DNA of 64,000 nt from the NCBI GenBank assembly GCA_963590075.1, contig CAVANK010000004.1:18670-82669 (forward strand), read 5' to 3'. The stretch comes from Eshraghiella crossota. GTDB taxonomy: Bacteria > Bacillota > Clostridia > Christensenellales > CAG-917. The notes under the pieces were generated by a model. That model saw nothing but the letters and a program-made list of their open reading frames with translations, did not search any database and had not been told where the DNA came from. The position numbers and the translations under genes are program-made. Every line of letters begins with the position of its first letter. Position 1 is the stretch's first letter. This document shows, piece by piece, positions 1 through 48,704 of this stretch.

Positions 1-189
1 AATAACTTTGTCAGCCTCGCCTTGCTCCAAAATCACGTACCACTTGTACGTTTGGTTTTGTTTCAAGGCGAGCCTTCCTTGTTCTTCATCTATTTAGTAA
101 GTTTTTTACAAAAGCGCTGTGATTTAGCGAACAACTGCAATTTTGCCGTTTTTACAAACTTACTAAATCCCTATTAGCCGTAGGCACAA
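1..189 (+). repeat. family-E multi-hairpin intergenic element, copy E0 (5' end cut by window edge)
   Basis: Same architecture as 4693-4961 and 36026-36199: AACTTTGTCAGC, outer stem CTCGCCTTG/CAAGGCGAG, inner CAAAA-TC-ACGTAC-loop-GTACGT-TTGG-TTTTG, then TTCCTTGTT..CATCTATTTA. Confidence 0.7.
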
Positions 190-3198: not shown

Positions 3199-4695
3199 AT
3201 GAGCGACGAAATCAAAAACGCCGAAGAAACTTTGGCGCAAGATGAAATCGAACAGCCGGAAGAGCCGGACGTGAACGAGCAATCTTCCGATGAAAAAGTT
3301 GAGGGTATTCTCGGTGAATATGAGGGCAAAAAGTCCGCAAAAGCCAAGAAAGAGAAGAAAAAACTCACCCCCGAGCAAAGAAAGAAAAAGACCGTCAAAG
3401 CCTTGATTATCACGGGCGCGGTATTTCTTGCGATTGCAATCTTTTTCAGCGGTTGCGCCATAGCGACCACAGTCAACGCCAATGCGCTTTTGACGCAAGC
3501 GGAAAACAACTTCCAAAAGGTCGAATACGATAAGGACGCGGGCGGCAACAGTTTGCAACTCAAACCGACTTTTGACAGCGACCTCGGTTTTTGGACGTTC
3601 ACCAAACCCGCGGACAGGGATTTCAAAGTCTTGCAATTCACCGACGTACATATCGGCGGCGGTGCGTTCTCGGGACAAAAGGACGCGTGGGCAATGAGCG
3701 CGGTTGCGACGATGATAAGAGCGGAAAAACCCGACCTCGTAGTCGTCACCGGTGACATCGCATACCCCGTACCTTTCCAAGCGGGCACGTTCAACAACCT
3801 CAACGCAACCAAGATTTTCTCGCATATGATGGAATCGCTCGGCGTTTACTGGACGTTTGCATTCGGCAACCACGACACCGAACTTTACAGCCTCTATACG
3901 CGCAAGGACATCTGCAAATATTACGAGGATTCAAATTTTGAATATTGCCTCTTCCGCGCAGGCTTCTGCGATGACGAAGACGTAATCAGCGACACCTCGA
4001 GAGGTTTTGGCAATGATATGATAGTCGTCAAAAACCCCGCCGGTTCCGCCAACCCCATCAACCAAGCAATCGTGACCTTCGACAGCCACAGTTACACTGA
4101 CGGTGACTATTTCGGAATTGCGTGGAAGTACGACAATATCCACCAATGTCAAGTGGATTGGTATTCCGAGAATATGGATATACTCAAAACCGCCAACAAC
4201 GGCGTGGAAGTCAACAACCTTGCCTTCTTCCACATCCCTCTCGTCGAGTATCGTGAAGCATGGGCAAACGTTATCAACAGTGGCAAAACGCTCAAGGCAG
4301 GCGAAAGTGTTCAAGGCAACGGAGCGACAACAACTTACATTTACGGCACTATGGGTGAGGACGGCACCAAGCAAAATAACGGCGTTCGTTCATACGGCGT
4401 ATTCTGCGGCAGCAGCACGGACAATCTTTTCGAAGCAGGCTTGACGCACGGCATGCAAGGCGTCTTCTGCGGACACGACCACTACAACAACTTCTCCGTT
4501 CTCTACAAGCGTGACGGCGATTCTCGTGGCATCCGCCTCACCTACGGCATGTCCATCGATTATCTCGCCTACGCCGGCATCTACAAAGAGCACTCTCAAC
4601 GCGGCACCACCGTCATCACCATCAACAGCGACGGTGTCTTCGAGAGCGTGCCACGCAACTACTATTCCTACGGCGTCTCTCACGAACGCGACTAA
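3199..4695 (+). CDS. calcineurin-like metallophosphoesterase with N-terminal membrane anchor
   Basis: AAGGAGG RBS. Motifs FTDVHIGG, VVTGDIAYP, GNHD, FFHIPL, GHDH. One TM helix after a lysine/glutamate-rich N-terminus. Confidence 0.8.
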   Translation: MSDEIKNAEETLAQDEIEQPEEPDVNEQSSDEKVEGILGEYEGKKSAKAKKEKKKLTPEQRKKKTVKALIITGAVFLAIAIFFSGCAIATTVNANALLTQAENNFQKVEYDKDAGGNSLQLKPTFDSDLGFWTFTKPADRDFKVLQFTDVHIGGGAFSGQKDAWAMSAVATMIRAEKPDLVVVTGDIAYPVPFQAGTFNNLNATKIFSHMMESLGVYWTFAFGNHDTELYSLYTRKDICKYYEDSNFEYCLFRAGFCDDEDVISDTSRGFGNDMIVVKNPAGSANPINQAIVTFDSHSYTDGDYFGIAWKYDNIHQCQVDWYSENMDILKTANNGVEVNNLAFFHIPLVEYREAWANVINSGKTLKAGESVQGNGATTTYIYGTMGEDGTKQNNGVRSYGVFCGSSTDNLFEAGLTHGMQGVFCGHDHYNNFSVLYKRDGDSRGIRLTYGMSIDYLAYAGIYKEHSQRGTTVITINSDGVFESVPRNYYSYGVSHERD

Positions 4696-4961
4696 AACGC
4701 ACTAAATAGCGCCTAACTTTGTCAGCGTCCCGAGTTTCGCAAATCACGTACGTTTATGTACGTTGGGTTTGCGCTCCTCGGGGCGCTTTCTCGTTATGCA
4801 TCTATTTATTGCGTTTTAGTTGTGCTCGTAACGTTAGGGTTGCTGTGCAAGGGGCTTTTCCGCGCTCTTCATCCGTTTAGAGGCTCTTAATCGCGTTCGT
4901 GAATTTTAGCATCTATTTATCGCGTTTTATTCACATTCGTGATAAATGGTGATTTCAAAAA
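4693..4961 (+). repeat. family-E multi-hairpin element, copy E1, starting at the stop codon of the phosphoesterase gene
   Basis: TAAAACGCACTAAATAGCGCCTAAC..; outer stem GCGTCCCGAG/CTCGGGGCGC; inner CGCAAA-TC-ACGTAC-GTTTAT-GTACGT-TGG-GTTTGCG; CATCTATTTAT(T/C)GCGTTTTA occurs twice. Confidence 0.8.
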
Positions 4962-5064
4962 CTCCACAACTGCGCCTACGGCGCAATATCACTTTTTGCG
5001 CAAGCAAAAAATATCACTCTTGCTTCGCAAGAATATCACTTGCGCCTACGGCGCAAATATCACT
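4962..5064 (+). repeat. family-A hairpin array, copy A2
   Basis: CTCCACAAC head, then TGCGCC-TAC-GGCGCA, TTTTGC-GCAA-GCAAAA, CTTGC-TTC-GCAAG, TGCGCC-TAC-GGCGCA, each followed by (A)ATATCACT. Confidence 0.85.
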
Positions 5065-5125
5065 TTTATTTTAATAAAAACTCCCTCTTCCATTTTTATT
5101 CTTTATATGTTACAATCATATCGTT

Positions 5126-5779
5126 ATGGAACAAGAGAAGACGAAAATTGACATTTACGATTTTGATAAGACGGCTATCCCGTACGACAGTGCGTTGCAC
5201 TATTGGTTTTGGTCGATGGCGCATTGTCCGTGGACGCTTATTTTGTTGCCGTTCCAACTCTTTTGGGGATTTTTGATGGTGACCAAGATTTTGCCCGTGC
5301 CGATTTTCAAGAAAATCGCGTTCAATTTCGTGTCGCTCATCAACACCGAGAAGACGGTCAAAAAGTATTGGGACAAGCACGAAAAGGATATATACGACTT
5401 TTTCAAACCCGAAAATCGCGATATGTCGCGCAAGTGCGTGCTTATCAGCGCAAGCCCAGACTTCCTTATCGAAGAGATTGCAAAGCGTATGCAAATCGAT
5501 TATTGCATCGCAAGCCCTCACAGCAAAAAGAACGGACATTTGCTCGGCAAAGTGTGTCGCAAGGACGAAAAAGTGCGCCGTTTGAACGAGATTTTGCCCG
5601 ACGTGGAAGTGGAAAACGTGTATAGCGACAGTCTCGATCACGACCGCTACATATTTGCTCTCGGCAAGCATTGCTATCTTGCCACCAAGGGAGAACTCAA
5701 AGAAATCGACTTTGAAAAAGAAATAAAGGCGTACGACGAAGCAAAGTCCAAAAAGAAATCCAAGAAAAAAGCAAAATGA
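5126..5779 (+). CDS. HAD-IB family hydrolase with hydrophobic insertion and lysine-rich C-terminal tail
   Basis: DxDxT motif (IYDFDKTAI), later ISASPD and SDSLDHD motifs. No SD sequence. Extended -10 TGTTACAAT ends 9 nt before the ATG. Confidence 0.6.
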   Translation: MEQEKTKIDIYDFDKTAIPYDSALHYWFWSMAHCPWTLILLPFQLFWGFLMVTKILPVPIFKKIAFNFVSLINTEKTVKKYWDKHEKDIYDFFKPENRDMSRKCVLISASPDFLIEEIAKRMQIDYCIASPHSKKNGHLLGKVCRKDEKVRRLNEILPDVEVENVYSDSLDHDRYIFALGKHCYLATKGELKEIDFEKEIKAYDEAKSKKKSKKKAK

Positions 5780-9509: not shown

Positions 9510-9548
9510 AACGATTAATTTTTTAATGGCAAATATCCAATAAATTTT

Positions 9549-9648
9549 TCCACAACTCGCACGAAGTGCGAATATCACTTTTGGCGCAAGACAAAAATAT
9601 CACTCTCGCATAGCGAGAATATCACTTGCGCACAGCGCAAATATCACT
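9549..9648 (+). repeat. family-A hairpin array, copy A3
   Basis: TCCACAAC head, then TCGCAC-GAA-GTGCGA, TTTTG-GCGCAAGA-CAAAA, CTCGC-ATA-GCGAG, TGCGC-ACA-GCGCA. ATATCACT at 9572, 9597, 9619 and 9641. Confidence 0.85.
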
Positions 9649-9711
9649 CCCGAGCATAAATTACGGTTGGTTTTTCATCATATATTTATTTTCCCGAAAT
9701 ACATTTATATT

Positions 9712-33059: not shown

Positions 33060-33202
33060 TTTTTGCGCCGTTAATCAACCGCTACGAGAGAGAATGGCTA
33101 TGATAGCCGTTCTCTTCGTTGTCTTCTGAGCCCTTTTTAAGGACTGAAAACTAAGATATACTACCATATAAAAGATAAAATAACTCAACATTGAGGTGGA
33201 TT

Positions 33203-36028
33203 ATGCTCCAACTTAAAGACGTCGTAAAAGATTATCCCACCGCTACCACGACGGTGCACGCGCTCCGCAAAGTATCGCTCAATTTCAGAGAGAGCGAGTT
33301 CGTTGCCATTTTGGGCCCGTCGGGATGCGGAAAAACCACTATGCTCAACATCATAGGCGGTCTTGACAGATACACCAGCGGTGACCTTGTCATCGGCGGA
33401 GTTTCCACGCGCGATTTTGACGACGAGCATTGGGACGCGTACAGAAACGCGACTATCGGTTTTGTTTTCCAAAGTTACAATCTTATCCCGCACCTCACCG
33501 TGCTTGAAAACGTCGAGCTTGCGTTGAGCCTCGTAGGCGAGGGTAAAAAGACGCGTAGAGCAAAGGCGGTTGCCGCGCTCCACAAAGTCAATATGCACGA
33601 CGAGATAAACAAGCGCCCCAACCAATTGAGCGGTGGACAAATGCAACGCGTCGCGATTGCAAGAGCCATCGTCAACGATCCCAAGATTATTCTTGCGGAC
33701 GAACCGACGGGTGCGTTGGATAGTGAACTCAGCGTGCAAGTTATGGATATTTTGCAAGAGATATCCAAGACTCGTCTCGTCATTATGGTTACACACAACG
33801 CCGAGCTTGCCTATCAATACGCAACTCGTATTTGTCGTTTCAAAGACGGTCAACTTATCGAGGACACCAATCCCTACGATCCCGAAGAAGAGACGGTAGA
33901 AGGGCAAGCGGACGTCTGTCGAGACATTGACGCTATTGATGAAATTATTGATCCCGAAATTGCGCAAGACACCACAATCGACACTTCAACGCTACAAAAC
34001 GACGAGATAAACGTCGAAAACGTGCAACAAGATGAAGACGGCAAGTCTAAAAAATTGTCCAATCACAAGCGCAAACTTGCAATGAAAAAGGTGGGCAGTG
34101 CCAGCAACGCACTCTTTGACAAATTGGGCATAAACAGTTTGTCAAAGAAGAAAAAACGCAAAGACAAGTCCTTCAAACCCACGTCTATGAGCGCGGGTAT
34201 GGCGTTTGGTCTTTCGTGGAGAAACCTCGTTTCCAAAAAGCGTCGTACGTTCTTTACGATGTTTGCTGGAAGCATAGGCATCATAGGACTCGGACTCGTA
34301 TTGTCCATATCCAACGGCTTCAACGTGTACGTCGAGAAGATGGAAAAAGAGATGTTTTCCAGCGTGCCTTTGGGCATTTATCAATACAACGTACAGAACT
34401 CCGCCATTATGGATATGATGATGAATTTCCAAAGTCAAGACGATTCCGGCGCATTCCCCGACAGCGATAAAATCGGAGTAAGCACGGACGGCGGCGGAAG
34501 CATAGACAGTTATATCTCGGCTTTTACCAAACCTTTCCTCGAAGGTATAACCAAAAACGAAATCACCGAAGAGTTTACTCAATATATGAAGAATATGCCC
34601 AAAGACAACTATAAGTCGATGAGCATCAATTATGGATTGAGATACAATCTCGTGCGCAAGACGTACGACAAAAACGGCAACATTACCTATGCGGACGTGT
34701 CTCAAGCGCCCGAACCGATAACCGCACTTTCAATCGCAACGACGGTGCTCGGTGAAAACGGTTTGCAATCCAAGTATTGGCAAGAGCTTGCAAGCAACAA
34801 AGACACTATGCTCGAATCTTACGACCTCATCGGTAAAAACAGCCGTTATCCGCAAAACAAAAACGAGATTTTGCTTTGCGTGGGCAAGGATAACAAGATA
34901 TCGCAAGATTTGCTCGACGAGTTTGGCATCGAACTCTATGAGAAGAACGAAGACGGCACTCTCAAAAAAGACGGTAGCGGCAAACCTATCTCGCTCGGCA
35001 CGTCCGATATCTCCTACGAGTACTTTATAGGTCAAACCGTCAAGATGATTCTCAACGACGACTACTATATAAAGACGGGCGAAACCTCTTACGATACAAT
35101 GGGCTTCGATACAAATCCGTCCTTGCTATATTGGTCGGAGAAGAGTCAATCGAGATTGCAATCGCTTTATGAAAATTCCGAAACCGAACTCAAAATCGTC
35201 GGCGTTATCAGACAAAAGAAGGGTGGTTATTCCTTTGTAAATTCCGCGCTTTGCTACACGCCCGAATTTGCCGAGTGGGCAATGGACCAAGCCTACAACA
35301 GTGAAGTAGCGCGTATTCAACGTACGCTCACACCGCAAGGCACAACTATTTTCGGTACGTACGACGAGGTAAACAACACGGGCTTTACCGACGATAGTTT
35401 TAGCAGTGAACTCGTGGACATCGTATACGGAAAAGTCCTCACGCTCGACTACTTTGCCAAGGCGGTCGGCGCGGATAGGTCGGCAAGTTTTATCACCGTG
35501 TTCCCCGAGACGTTCGAGCAAAAAGACGCGGCAATCAATTATATCAATGCGTGGAATAAGACCGAAATCGGCTACTTCGACGTGTCGGCGATGTTCCTCT
35601 ACAACATCACCATTATGATTGACCTCGTGTCCGCAATGCTCATTGCGGTCGCGTCCATCTCGCTTGTGGTGTCCACCGTTATGATCGGCGTCATCACGTC
35701 CAACTCCGTCATCGAGCGTATCCGTGAGATAGGTATTCTCCGTGCAATCGGCGCACGCAAGCGCGATATTCGCAACGTGTTCATTGCCGAGACCGCAATC
35801 ATAGGTTTCAGTAGCGGTGTCATCGGCATCGTCGTCACCTATATCCTCTGTCCGCTTATATCCCTCGTCATCAAAGCGGCAACCGGTATCGGCTCGCTCT
35901 TGCACTTCCACCCGTTGCACGCTCTTGCCCTCGTCGCCATCAGTTTGCTTTTGACGGTCATTTCGGGCATTATTCCGGCGATTAATGCTTCACGTAAGAA
36001 CGTCGTCGACGCTCTCCGCGTAGAGTAA
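33203..36028 (+). CDS. fused ABC transporter ATP-binding/permease protein (MacB/FtsX type) with a large extracytoplasmic domain
   Basis: Walker [10 protein letters not shown], signature [14 protein letters not shown], Walker [13 protein letters not shown]-terminal FtsX-like TM bundle ([16 protein letters not shown]). Confidence 0.88.
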
Positions 36029-36199
36029 AACGACACTAAATTGCGCCTAACGGCGTCAGGTCTGTCCGCCCGTCAACTCATTTACGATTTAGTAAATTAG
36101 GGTTGCCGTTCGGACATTCCTTCCTTGTTATGCATCGATTTATTGCTGTTTTACAAACCGCACTATTTAGCGAATAACTGCGTTACTGCCGTCCGAATT
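36026..36199 (+). repeat. family-E multi-hairpin element, copy E2, starting at the ABC transporter stop codon
   Basis: TAAAACGACACTAAATTGCGCCTAAC..; outer stem TGTCCG/CGGACA; inner CAAC-TC-ATTTAC-GATTTA-GTAAAT-TAG-G-GTTG; TTCCTTGTTATGCATCGATTTATTGC. Confidence 0.8.
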
Positions 36200-38674: not shown

Positions 38675-38750
38675 GGGGATATAGCTCAGTTGGTAGAGCG
38701 CCTGATTTGCATTCAGGAGGTCCTCGGTTCGAATCCGTGTATCTCCACCA
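38675..38750 (+). tRNA. tRNA-Ala (anticodon UGC), CCA encoded
   Basis: Manual cloverleaf. Acceptor GGGGATA/TATCTCC with G3:U70. Anticodon arm CCTGA-TTTGCAT-TCAGG. T-loop TTCGAAT. One U:U mismatch in the T stem (CTCGG/CCGTG). Confidence 0.8.
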
Positions 38751-39028
38751 CAGGTGAAAATACCCGCATTCCGTTGCGGGCGCGCAACGCATCACTTTGT
38801 GATGCAACCGAGGACAAGTCCTCGCTGACGCTCGCTTCGATATGCAAGCACAAGCGCTCGCTATTTTACGAATCCGTGTATCTCCACCACAGGTGAAAAT
38901 ACCCGCATTCCGTTGCGGGCGCGCAACGCATCACTTTGTGATGCAACCGAGGACAAGTCCTCGCTGACGCTCGCTTCGATATGCAAGCACAAGCGCTCGC
39001 TATTTTACGAATCCGTGTATCTCCACCA
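38751..39028 (+). repeat. two identical tandem 139-bp units, each ending with a 21-bp copy of the tRNA-Ala 3' end
   Basis: CGAATCCGTGTATCTCCACCA at 38730-38750 (in the tRNA), 38869-38889 and 39008-39028. The units are 38751-38889 and 38890-39028. Confidence 0.9.
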
Positions 39029-44996: not shown

Positions 44997-45570
44997 TGGC
45001 TGTGCGGTAGAGAGACTAAAATTTATTGCAATAAAAGAAAGACACGCAAATGAAAATGCGTGTCTTTCGTAAGCTTGCAATAAAATAAAGGTAATAAACA
45101 TCATAGATTGAATAAAGAGCGAGAAAAAGCCCCTTGGGCGACAACCCTCACCTAAAAAGGAACGGAAAAACACCAAACAGACAATCTTGCGAAACTGTGG
45201 CAGGAGTTTTTGTCCGTGCTTGAACCGATAGCAAAAGATTGGCTGTGCGGTAGAGAGACTAAAATTTATTGCAATAAAAGAAAGACACGCAAATGAAAAT
45301 GCGTGTCTTTCGTAAGCTTGCAATAAAATAAAGGTAATAAACATCATAGATTGAATAAAGAGCGAGAAAAAGCCCCTTGGGCGACAACCCTCACCTAAAA
45401 AGGAACGGAAAAACACCAAACAGACAATCTTGCGAAACTGTGGCAGGAGTTTTTGTCCGTGCTTGAACCGATAGCAAAAGATTGGCTGTGCGGTAGAGAG
45501 ACTAAAATTTATTGCAATAAAAGAAAGACACGCAAATGAAAATGCGTGTCTTTCGTAAGCTTGCAATAAA
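44997..45570 (-). repeat. 243-bp tandem repeat, ~2.4 copies, each carrying a copy of the rpsR terminator
   Basis: TGGCTGTGCGGTAGAGAGAC at 44997, 45240 and 45483. Units look near-identical by eye. Confidence 0.9.
45523..45554 (-). terminator. rho-independent terminator of rpsF-ssb-rpsR (further copies at 45280-45311 and 45037-45068)
   Basis: GAAAGACACGCA-AATGAAAA-TGCGTGTCTTTC with a T-run on the minus strand. Confidence 0.85.
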
Positions 45571-46522: not shown

Positions 46523-46801
46523 ACTTTTTTTACCTCCTTTTGGTCTTGTGTCCCTTGCGGGAAAGGAATATGCATCTCTTTGATGCCTTGTTATAATATA
46601 TTAAATATTTATATTTGTAAAGCAAATAAACCAAAAATGGCGCGGAATTAATTATTTAACGGGGCGGAATTAATAATTATGAATAAGCAATTAATAATTA
46701 ATAATTGAGGGTGGGACACCCACACCCGAGCAAAAGTCGTCGCTGTGGCAAAGACAACTCACAAGTTCATTGTCTACTGCCACGCTAGTCTTATTGCTCT
46801 G

Positions 46802-48514: not shown

Positions 48515-48570
48515 GTGCCCGTTTTGGCACAATTCGGCGCTTATTTTGACATAATTTTTATCGAATTTCT

Positions 48571-48650
48571 TGCGTTTTTTGCGTGTTTTTTGCGTGTTTT
48601 TTGCGTGTTTTTTGCGTGTTTTTTGCGTGTTTTTCGCACGTTTTTTGCAT
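48571..48650. repeat. 11-bp tandem repeat with phased T-tracts (~7 units)
   Basis: (GCGTGTTTTTT)n; unit starts at 48581, 48592, 48603, 48614, 48625 and 48636. Confidence 0.85.
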
Positions 48651-48704
48651 CGTCTTTGAGTTTTTTATGTTTTTTTGCAAAAAAGCATAAAGAAAAAGCG
48701 CAAT

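Follow-up and report, generated by a model that had tools for sequence, protein, structure and literature searches.

The window (the whole 64,000-nucleotide stretch analysed) contains three lead copies of a repeat, here called element E, together with remnants of further copies (Table 1). Two of the lead copies are intact: E1 follows a metallophosphoesterase gene, and E2 follows a gene for an ABC-FtsX fusion. The E sequences in the window were all found at the coordinates given in an earlier note on this DNA. E1 and E2 do start on the stop codon of the ORF that precedes each of them (3199-4695 and 33191-36028 respectively), and the partial third copy that the note placed at the start of the window, E0, is real. 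The extent proposed for E1, 4693-4961, is too long, since 4831-4961 is outside E1 and holds remnants of older copies. The stop of malQ, TAAAACG, had also been listed as a related feature. This is a chance-level match, TAAAAC being present at 3 of 316 non-E gene ends, and the idea that the malQ stop is a conserved empty target was rejected for the same reason.

Table 1. Copies and remnants of element E in the window, and the parts of E1
Feature	Position	Strand	Description
E0, lead copy	1-108	+	Head lost at the window edge
Head remnant of second copy	109-138	+	After E0
Solo arm-plus-box, AAACTTACTAAAT	155-170	+	After E0
E1, intact lead copy	4693-4818	+	126-nt imperfect hairpin; from the fold, the family alignment and an identical copy in an independent assembly
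TAA stop of the metallophosphoesterase gene (3199-4695)	4693-4695	+	First three bases and first base pairs of E1
Terminator-like hairpin core of E1	4724-4787	+	GC-rich stem 2 around apical stem 3; from the fold and covariation in helices 2 and 3
U-rich tract of E1, TTCTCGTTA	4788-4796	+	Immediately 3' of stem 2; left unpaired in the full fold; this strand only
3'-half remnant of older second copy	4831-4881	+	Model positions 62-112; nhmmer 16.7 bits
Tail-only remnant of a further copy, GCATCTATTTATCGCGTTTTA	4909-4929	+	
E2, intact lead copy	36026-36153	+	Starts at the TAA of the ABC-FtsX fusion gene (33191-36028)
Head-only remnant of second copy, CAAACCGCACTATTTAGCGAATAACTGCGTTACTGCCG	36154-36192	+	3' of E2

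Each of the three lead copies is a single long imperfect hairpin, in which the head TAAAACGCACTAAAT pairs with the tail ATTTATTGCGTTTTA. The separate outer and inner stems described earlier are therefore incomplete: the 'TTCCTTGTTATGCATCTATTTATTGC' tail pairs with the head, so that E is one hairpin of ~126 nt and the stop codon is the first base pair of its closing stem. From 5' to 3', E1 consists of the left arm TAAAACGCAC, a TAAAT box, AGCGCC-TAAC, the internal loop TTTGTCAG and stems 2 and 3, followed by the U-rich tract, GTTA-TGCATC, an ATTTA box and the right arm TTGCGTTTTA. Stem 2 is formed by 4724-4734 with 4777-4787, and stem 3 by 4738-4751 with 4758-4773, closing a loop at 4752-4757. 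The TC that had been described as an unpaired bulge can pair with GG (a conserved U.G pair and a C-G pair), which leaves a 2-nt bulge on the 3' side. RNAfold gives -60.1 kcal/mol for E1 (z -8.35) and -46.2 kcal/mol for E2 (z -5.25), and E folds equally well with DNA parameters (z -8.25).

The TAA of the metallophosphoesterase gene is at the native stop position, the C-terminus ...HERD being conserved down to ~56% identity. A second assembly, made independently (Logan SRR13434676), has the same E1 array without a single base difference. The head at 36154-36192 is also the one that precedes the E2-type core in the orthologous array of L048.

No Rfam 15 family matches E when searched with covariance models, a check that the earlier note had proposed, and the only matches at gathering score in the whole window are two tRNAs and Gut-1. 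A permissive scan of 4650-5130 gave nothing on E except mir-59 (E = 0.43). The Gut-1 RNA motif (RF01706), whose model consists of four mini-hairpins on AATATCACT linkers, was rejected as an identity for E: it matches at 4981-5065 and 9567-9649, downstream of E and not on it. Gut-1 is a separate module of the same intergenic regions.

Distribution and stop-codon anchoring of the family

Pattern scans found E at 81 loci in about 25 gut MAG species and at 95 more in metagenome contigs; the pattern was expected to give about one random match in 596 Gb. The spacing in the 81 loci is always 92-95, though the pattern permitted 79-109. A loose fuzzy motif search with the 10-nt core gave noise only. 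The carriers are uncultured human-gut Clostridia, labelled in the records as 'Christensenella sp.' or as Clostridiales MAGs. The pattern scan found no copies in viral collections, and a phage or plasmid origin was rejected, as there were no matches in either collection. In the literature we found no relevant description of such a family in Christensenellales, nor of MITEs at stop codons. E is a previously undescribed hairpin repeat of ~126 bases of uncultured gut Clostridia.

The lead copy holds the stop codon of a long same-strand ORF in 88 of 99 arrays, compared with 1 of 41 later copies. This was replicated in the metagenome contigs, with 116 of 134 lead copies and none of 55 later copies. 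Starting at a stop codon, which the earlier note had suggested should be tabulated, is a property of lead copies across the family. The offsets from stop to E cluster at -11, -10, -9, 0, +4 and +11, and in 24% of lead copies the stop is inside the element (0, +4 or +11). The stop is TAA at 53 of 58 E-anchored gene ends (~90%), against 166 of 316 elsewhere (53%; p = 4e-9), and stops in all three frames are present in 51 of 82 E heads, against 3.8% of shuffles.

Without exception, E has the sense orientation of the gene upstream. Where two genes converge, each has an E of its own; orientation thus follows the gene and not replication, and the suggestion that it is set by the replication strand was rejected. 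With downstream genes taken from crude ORF calling, the next gene is convergent for 49 of 65 arrays and on the same strand for the remaining 16; in 14 of these cases a gap of 71-1046 nt lies between, and in two there is none. The genes served by E are unrelated housekeeping genes (pckA, recR, lysS-like, ABC transporter).

Covariation and strand symmetry of the pairing

The three helices listed in the earlier note exist and covary. In 117 copies, 89.8% of cells are paired, compared with ~40% when the partners are slid, and 43 of 46 pairs have changes on both sides; none of 500 shuffles reaches the observed values. Selection on the sense RNA should be visible as an excess of G.U cells over A.C cells, which are the antisense mirror of G.U. 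With the conserved U.G pair set aside, there are 121 single-sided G.U cells and 134 A.C cells, and so no excess of G.U. In 63 of 82 copies the more stable fold is that of the antisense RNA, although the margin is slight. These two results indicate that the pairing is a property of a DNA palindrome, as in REPINs, which are mobile DNA hairpins that have the same compensatory pattern (Bertels and Rainey, 2011; PMC3116915). The equally good fold with DNA parameters, the swapping of cores and the growth of arrays by unequal crossing-over likewise speak against a selected sense-strand RNA fold. Some strand-specific asymmetries are nevertheless kept, namely the U.G pair at columns 58/81, the 2-nt bulge, and the loops TTTGTCAG and CATC.

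The earlier note had regarded the covariation as the signature of a selected RNA (or ssDNA) fold. A structured repeat family with massive covariation is borne out, while selection on the sense RNA is not, and the ssDNA alternative fits better. The covariation of E does not show a selected sense-strand RNA fold. This is a caution of some generality, since a DNA palindrome can acquire covariation as strong as this (43 of 46 pairs) when no sense-strand RNA fold is under selection; the comparisons of G.U with A.C and of sense with antisense folding are cheap tests that separate the two.

The arms of E are kept Watson-Crick complementary, and even a coding left arm is matched by the right arm. The latter mirrors native codons of PckA (...AGPQL; PDB 1ytm ends there) and of RecR. 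The right arm also tracks synonymous changes in the coding arm.

Array turnover and exchange with classical terminators

Loci exchange whole E cores; one genome has two loci whose cores are 97% identical and whose arms are unrelated. Arrays expand by unequal crossing-over: there are one to four copies behind identical PckA across ten strains, and L151 has a 124-nt tandem triplication. Homologous recombination accounts for most of the changes in the arrays. Unequal crossing-over also shortens them, and behind the lead copy the older copies degenerate.

Some features resemble those of mobile elements. E has terminal inverted repeats like a MITE (TAAAACYGCGC ... GCGCRGTTTTA), and conservation stops exactly at -11 and +11. 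One copy in a strain polymorphism, copy F, has its own arms and a TAAA duplication on its flanks, and 3'-half fragments break at the hairpin apex. The ends of E read TA...TA and are self-complementary, and only 56% of copies have A or G immediately 3' of the right end; orthologous empty sites are too diverged to give exact junctions. An apparent empty site was seen at position 46617 of the window in comparison with L032 and L042, with flanks too diverged to be used.

The terminator-like hairpin core of E, the 11-bp stem 2 together with stem 3, has a median dG of -33.4 kcal/mol. The next 10 nt contain 5-7 T in 82 of 82 copies, against 2 on the reverse strand, the tract being partly fixed by the search pattern, and the U-tract is interrupted by C/G (TTTCKYGTT). 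Like an intrinsic terminator, E has a U-rich tract immediately after a GC-rich stem-loop on the transcribed strand, lies where transcription units end, and can be exchanged for other terminators. The conserved internal loops (TTTGTCAG and CATC) and the head-tail stem are superfluous for a simple terminator, and a transcript ended after stem 2 could not form the head-tail stem.

The exchange is seen at orthologous genes. Four orthologues of the metallophosphoesterase gene (L083, L084, L085 and L108) end in TGA and a classical terminator without E, one (L107) has TAA and an E-core-like hairpin with a T-run, and one (L082) carries E. The recR gene of a species with a 96% identical RecR has TGA and a terminator, again without E. 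The recR homologue search gave relatives that are 95-99% identical and one 73% match, and one abundant species is E-less. At L024 and L029, E has collapsed to, or been replaced by, classical terminators, L029 being a collapse. Terminators at the E-less recR and metallophosphoesterase sites are 13-49 nt from the stop. Insertion of E into the loops of older terminator hairpins was rejected, because of this distance and because these sites have no inverted copy of the coding end. Extra classical terminators were found behind 3 of 57 E arrays and at 34 of 311 non-E gene ends, which does not discriminate.

A proposed ready-made gene end and its alternatives

We lean towards reading E as a recombining, possibly mobile gene-end module, which brings with it a stop codon and then a GC-rich hairpin and U-rich tract, and so constitutes a terminator. 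In more general terms, the description that we somewhat favour is of a dispersed, orientation-locked palindromic repeat of ~126 nt that works as a ready-made gene end. The first bases of E would provide the TAA stop, and TAA triplets at +11 and +22 would close the remaining two frames. The 11-bp GC-rich stem and its apical extension would lie ~30 nt downstream, clear of the terminating ribosome, with the U-rich tract after them. Stem and tract would end the transcript, most likely as a Rho-independent terminator or a 3'-end protector, and the 3' ends of the E1 transcript are predicted to lie within TTTCTCGTT (4787-4795). E would in this way substitute for the small classical terminators present at the same gene ends of E-less relatives. 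The termination activity is suggested by anatomy and position, and at the RNA level E is likely to be a terminator and not a riboregulator.

E resembles Rho-independent terminators in having a GC-rich stem-loop and then a U-rich tract, on the sense strand and at the ends of transcription units, and in being interchangeable with classical ones at orthologous sites. It differs from them in being ten times larger than needed, in forming a homologous multi-copy family with conserved loops whose copy number varies between strains, in its outer stem that closes back to the stop codon, and in its interrupted U-tract. Correia elements of Neisseria and ERIC/IRU of enterobacteria are MITE-like imperfect palindromes of 100-150 bp with terminal inverted repeats, inserted at TA and co-transcribed with their neighbours, and some are terminators or RNase III substrates. 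Unlike E, they are found either way round and at no fixed distance from genes; they are not known to be anchored at stop codons or to have their flanks copied into the arms. With REPINs and REPs E shares abundance as a non-coding palindromic repeat of ~100 nt forming one long hairpin, conserved ends with a variable middle that is paired through compensatory changes, tandem arrays, vertical persistence in a clade and a 3'-region location. The terminator and stabiliser effects reported for REPIN/REP are also shared in kind with the predicted role of E, REP325 being a dual terminator-stabiliser (bioRxiv 10.64898/2026.03.23.713779). E is unlike them in its strict confinement to the sense strand of the gene before it, at whose stop codon it starts, in supplying TAA stops, in a right arm that copies the last codons of the gene, and in having no REP-type ends of GTAG plus a short palindrome.

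The likeness to REPINs raises the alternative that E is mobile DNA of a purely selfish sort, a hairpin transposon resembling REPINs or MITEs and mobilised by a transposase that the genome encodes (for example of the Y1/RAYT type, acting on single-stranded hairpins). Its position at stop codons would then reflect choice of a TAAA-like target and purging of harmful insertions, and the terminator features would be incidental. The terminal inverted repeats at which conservation ends, the almost identical cores that one genome carries at non-orthologous loci, presence or absence at orthologous sites, copy F with its own arms and flanking TAAA duplication, the DNA-level symmetry of the pairing and the fragments broken at the hairpin apex all suit this explanation, as do the size, shape and compensatory changes of REPINs (PMC3116915). 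We nevertheless consider it unlikely, since orientation and anchoring are far stricter than in any known REPIN or MITE and TAAA is too common as a target to account for 87-89% anchoring. The 56% of copies with A or G after the right end argues against insertion into the TA of the stop codon, homologous recombination explains most array changes, no copies are present in phage or viral collections, and the terminators at the same place in E-less orthologues argue for a host-relevant role. The view of the earlier note, that E is a cis-acting structured RNA of the 3' UTR, is less probable still. Here the whole 126-nt hairpin would be bound or processed in the mRNA (for example by RNase III or an RNA-binding protein), setting stability or releasing a 3'-UTR-derived sRNA. 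It gains from the invariable sense-strand location, the conserved asymmetries (U.G 58/81, the bulge and both loops) and a very stable fold, and loses from the balance of G.U and A.C, the better antisense folding in 63 of 82 copies, the lack of an Rfam relative and the unrelated functions of the genes served; moreover, a transcript that stops after stem 2 would not include the closing stem.

A hairpin based on the stop codon might instead stall or tune the terminating ribosome. Liang, Rudd and Deutscher reportedly found in 2015 that E. coli REPs within ~15 nt of stop codons provoke stalling and trans-translation, and in E the stop codon forms the first base pair, a terminating ribosome covers roughly the length of the weak A/U-rich 11-nt arm, and TAA is strongly preferred. 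Such a device is very improbable, as the 24% of lead copies with an internal stop (0, +4 or +11) do not keep the exact geometry, and down-regulation of housekeeping genes would seem to have no evident reason. It is hardly credible that E is an integron attC-type site, an imperfect palindrome behind an ORF recombined as folded single-stranded DNA. The size range, the position directly behind ORFs, the fixed orientation and a structure conserved more than sequence are alike, and GCCTAAC in E1 and E2 fits the RYYYAAC inverse core. However, the sequence in most copies is GAATAAC or GACTAAC, the 3' box reads GTTATGC or GTTCTTC and not GTTRRRY, the genes are dispersed and housekeeping and not promoterless cassettes, and the arrays contain hairpins without ORFs. 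An attC identity was already disfavoured and was rejected, because E lacks the paired core sites RYYYAAC and GTTRRRY.

The gene-end module can be extended to a bolder proposal, which we regard as doubtful: that E is a new kind of mobile 'gene-end cassette', homing to stop codons and oriented as translation runs. The native stop would be replaced, TGA giving way to E's own TAA, and a terminator would be brought along. The closing stem would be built or repaired by inverted copying of the last codons of the host gene (fold-back or template-switch synthesis), so that each copy would be welded to its gene, while the cassette population would turn over between strains. The exact welding to stop codons, and the tracking of synonymous changes by the right arm, might bring to light a new process of targeting or template switching.

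Gene callers and terminator predictors will misread E loci. If E works as we read it, a clade of abundant human-gut bacteria has swapped many of its ordinary terminators for one homologous, recombining hairpin. Such an element would amount to a naturally occurring 'stop plus terminator' cassette and would make the 3' ends of housekeeping genes vary from strain to strain.

Extent and anatomy of the E family

A search pattern built on the poorly paired conserved bases of E, a dispersed hairpin repeat (TAAC-N3-GTCAG ... YGTTNTNCATCNATTTA; about one chance match expected), had 81 matches, each with a spacing of 92-95. They lie in some 25 species-level MAGs, which are without exception from uncultured gut Clostridia (titled 'Christensenella sp. 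UBA...', CAG:475, UMGS... and HGM...). The pattern also matched 95 metagenome-contig stretches, of which those with descriptive names are from human gut, and gave no match in IMG/VR or GenBank phages. Searching the genome loci with nhmmer gave 142 further or identical copies in 101 same-strand arrays, and the metagenome set holds 189 copies in 134 arrays. The family is real and large and, as far as the literature searched and Rfam show, undescribed: the Rfam check proposed in the earlier note returned no matching family.

Anatomy and pairing statistics were taken from an alignment of 117 copies (A2). From 5' to 3', E consists of a left arm (consensus T-A-A-[A/G]-A-C-Y-G-C-R-C), a TAAAT box, NGCGNN-TAAC, a conserved internal loop (TTTGTCAG), a GC-rich stem 2 of 11 bp, stem 3 (conserved U.G, 2-nt bulge and GTAC-loop-GTAC tip), stem 2', a U-rich CTTTCKYGTT, MTKCATC, an ATTTA box and a right arm (K-C-G-C-R-G-T-Y-T-T-A). 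Conservation ends exactly at -11 and +11. Paired cells make up 89.8% of the alignment, compared with about 40% when the partners are slid, and both sides change in 43 of 46 pairs, so that the covariation of paired positions claimed previously is borne out. Some copies, many of them second in their array, have TATTT/AAATA in place of the usual boxes (A2 columns 15-19 with 119-123): the entire 5-bp box is flipped and pairing is kept.

Features of the window and of comparison loci (L-numbers, from related MAGs and contigs)
Feature	Position	Description
E0	1-108	head cut by window edge
Mini-hairpin array	196-300	four mini-hairpins on AATATCACT linkers; downstream of E0
E-head-like fragment	340-375	TATAAAACTAAATTGCGCG (arm, TAAAT box, TGCGC), no core behind; just upstream of gene at 443
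Metallophosphoesterase ORF	3199-4695	calcineurin-type; its TAA opens E1
E1	4693-4818	
Remnants of older E copies	4831-4961	3'-half remnant and tail-only remnant
Mini-hairpin array	4960-5065	as at 196-300; downstream of E1; Gut-1, 45.3 bits at 4981-5065
Mini-hairpin array	9548-9651	as at 196-300; downstream of malQ stop; Gut-1, 50.3 bits at 9567-9649
ABC ATPase-FtsX permease fusion ORF	33191-36028	its TAA opens E2
E2	36026-36153	
Repeat pair	38730-39007	two identical 139-bp units adjoining tRNA
Tandem repeat	44997-45570	243-bp units, ~2.4 copies, strong terminator in each
Short-unit array	48543-48683	11-nt GTTTTTTGCGT, ~10 units
Box-swapped E copies (examples)	L043:329-438, L064:3539-3671, L049:7585-7717	
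E-core-like terminator	L107:2300-2375	CACTCATCCG...CGGATGGGTG, inner AAATCC/GGATTT stem
Replaced recR terminator region	L093:1285-1700	compared with L086-L095
Triplicated E	L151:2400-2800	minus strand

Stop codons and orientation

All three copies in the window were found where the earlier note had placed them, and E1 and E2 indeed begin at a stop codon. The architecture described there holds for the listed copies but overlooked that the 'tail' pairs with the 'head': on folding, each copy is a single imperfect hairpin of ~126 nt, with the stop codon as its first base pairs (E1, -60.1 kcal/mol, z -8.35; E2, -46.2 kcal/mol, z -5.25). DNA and RNA parameters give the same fold. The interval 4693-4961, flagged as one element, is E1 followed by remnants; head-only remnants stand 3' of E2 and of E0. 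An independent assembly contains an identical E1 array. The mini-hairpin arrays, each immediately upstream of the next gene, are assigned by Rfam to Gut-1 (RF01706, minus strand), and the orthologous L082 region has E then Gut-1 in the same order.

The start at a stop codon extends well beyond the window. The lead copy, nearest the upstream gene, contains the stop codon of a long ORF on its own strand in 88/99 arrays from genomes and 116/134 from metagenomes, compared with 1/41 and 0/55 later copies, respectively. Stops fall at -11, -10 or -9 (the hairpin base), 0 (the TAA within cTAAat), +4 and +11. The three TAA triplets are spaced 11 nt apart, which places one in each reading frame; stops in every frame are present in 51/82 heads, compared with 3.8% of shuffles. 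TAA is the stop at 53/58 E-anchored gene ends and at 166/316 others (p = 4e-9).

By crude ORF calls, 49/65 arrays face a convergent gene, and the remaining 16 are followed by a same-strand gene, mostly after gaps of 70-1000 nt. Convergent genes each have their own E, indicating that orientation follows the gene; orientation set by replication is thereby ruled out.

Origin of the pairing and turnover of arrays

The earlier note took covariation as the signature of a selected RNA (or ssDNA) fold. For RNA this reading was not supported: with the one conserved U.G pair excluded, the 121 single-sided G.U cells are not above the A.C cells (134), and in 63/82 copies the predicted fold of the antisense RNA is better than that of the sense RNA. 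In one genome, the loci L007 (recR) and L019 have cores that are 97% identical between the TAAAT and ATTTA boxes, with unrelated arms. Where the left arm is native coding sequence, the right arm still mirrors it. PckA in solved structures ends ...AGPQL; here E adds one residue to it, and the right arm is complementary to its P-Q-L codons. The recR genes of L007 and L035 show five coding differences, each with its mirror change in the right arm; in L016 the recR arms are built on CTT-TGA. The E-less recR site has no inverted copy of the coding end, which argues that the right arm was made after E arrived and did not pre-exist. REPINs, known mobile palindromic repeats, show the same compensatory behavior (PMC3116915). 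It is concluded on sequence grounds that the pairing is a property of a DNA palindrome and not of a selected RNA fold.

Among ten strains whose 535-residue PckA is identical, the E arrays differ (A; A,C; B,C; A,B; A,B,C; D,B,C; F,D; F,D,B; F,D,B,C), with copy order constant (F first, A or D next, B after these and C last). Junctions fall in conserved segments (GCGAATA), which fits homologous recombination. Copy F, with its own arms and a TAAA duplication on its flanks, is the one event seen that resembles transposition. Behind one gene in L151, three near-identical units stand in perfect tandem (124-nt period), each retaining a right arm matched to the gene end; judged from this arrangement, the triplication is the product of unequal crossing-over of adjacent copies. 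The same process explains why later copies have gene-end-matching right arms but junk heads. Lead copies score 84.8 bits and later copies 60.5 bits, and 3'-half fragments tend to begin at the apical loop.

E and classical terminators at orthologous gene ends

The metallophosphoesterase C-terminus, ...HE(R/K)D, is kept down to ~56% identity, so the TAA of E1 is at the native stop position. Among its orthologues, L082 (87% identity) has E with a different core, at GAC/TAAAACC..., and L107 (79%) has TAA and then an E-core-like hairpin and plain T-run, without head or tail, while L108, L083, L084 and L085 (70, 69, 67 and 60%) have TGA and a small classical terminator, without E. The L107 terminator may be an ancestor or a remnant of E.

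Four MAGs carry E at recR. The recR gene of an abundant species, whose RecR is 96% identical, ends ...GAA CTT TGA with an ordinary terminator and no E. In one strain of this species (L093), a sequence 178 nt longer, rich in GAAAATTT-like units, replaces the usual terminator region, which makes a second type of variation between strains at a gene end.

Decayed copies are also found: in L024 the E head alone survives, followed by a textbook terminator, and in L029 E has been reduced to stem 2 and TTTTT. Together with the orthologous gene ends, these indicate that E and classical terminators are interchangeable. The U-rich tract is sense-only (5-7 T per 10 nt, compared with 2 on the reverse strand), and the median hairpin dG is -33.4 kcal/mol. 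On this basis, E is predicted to function, most likely, as a terminator and gene-end module.
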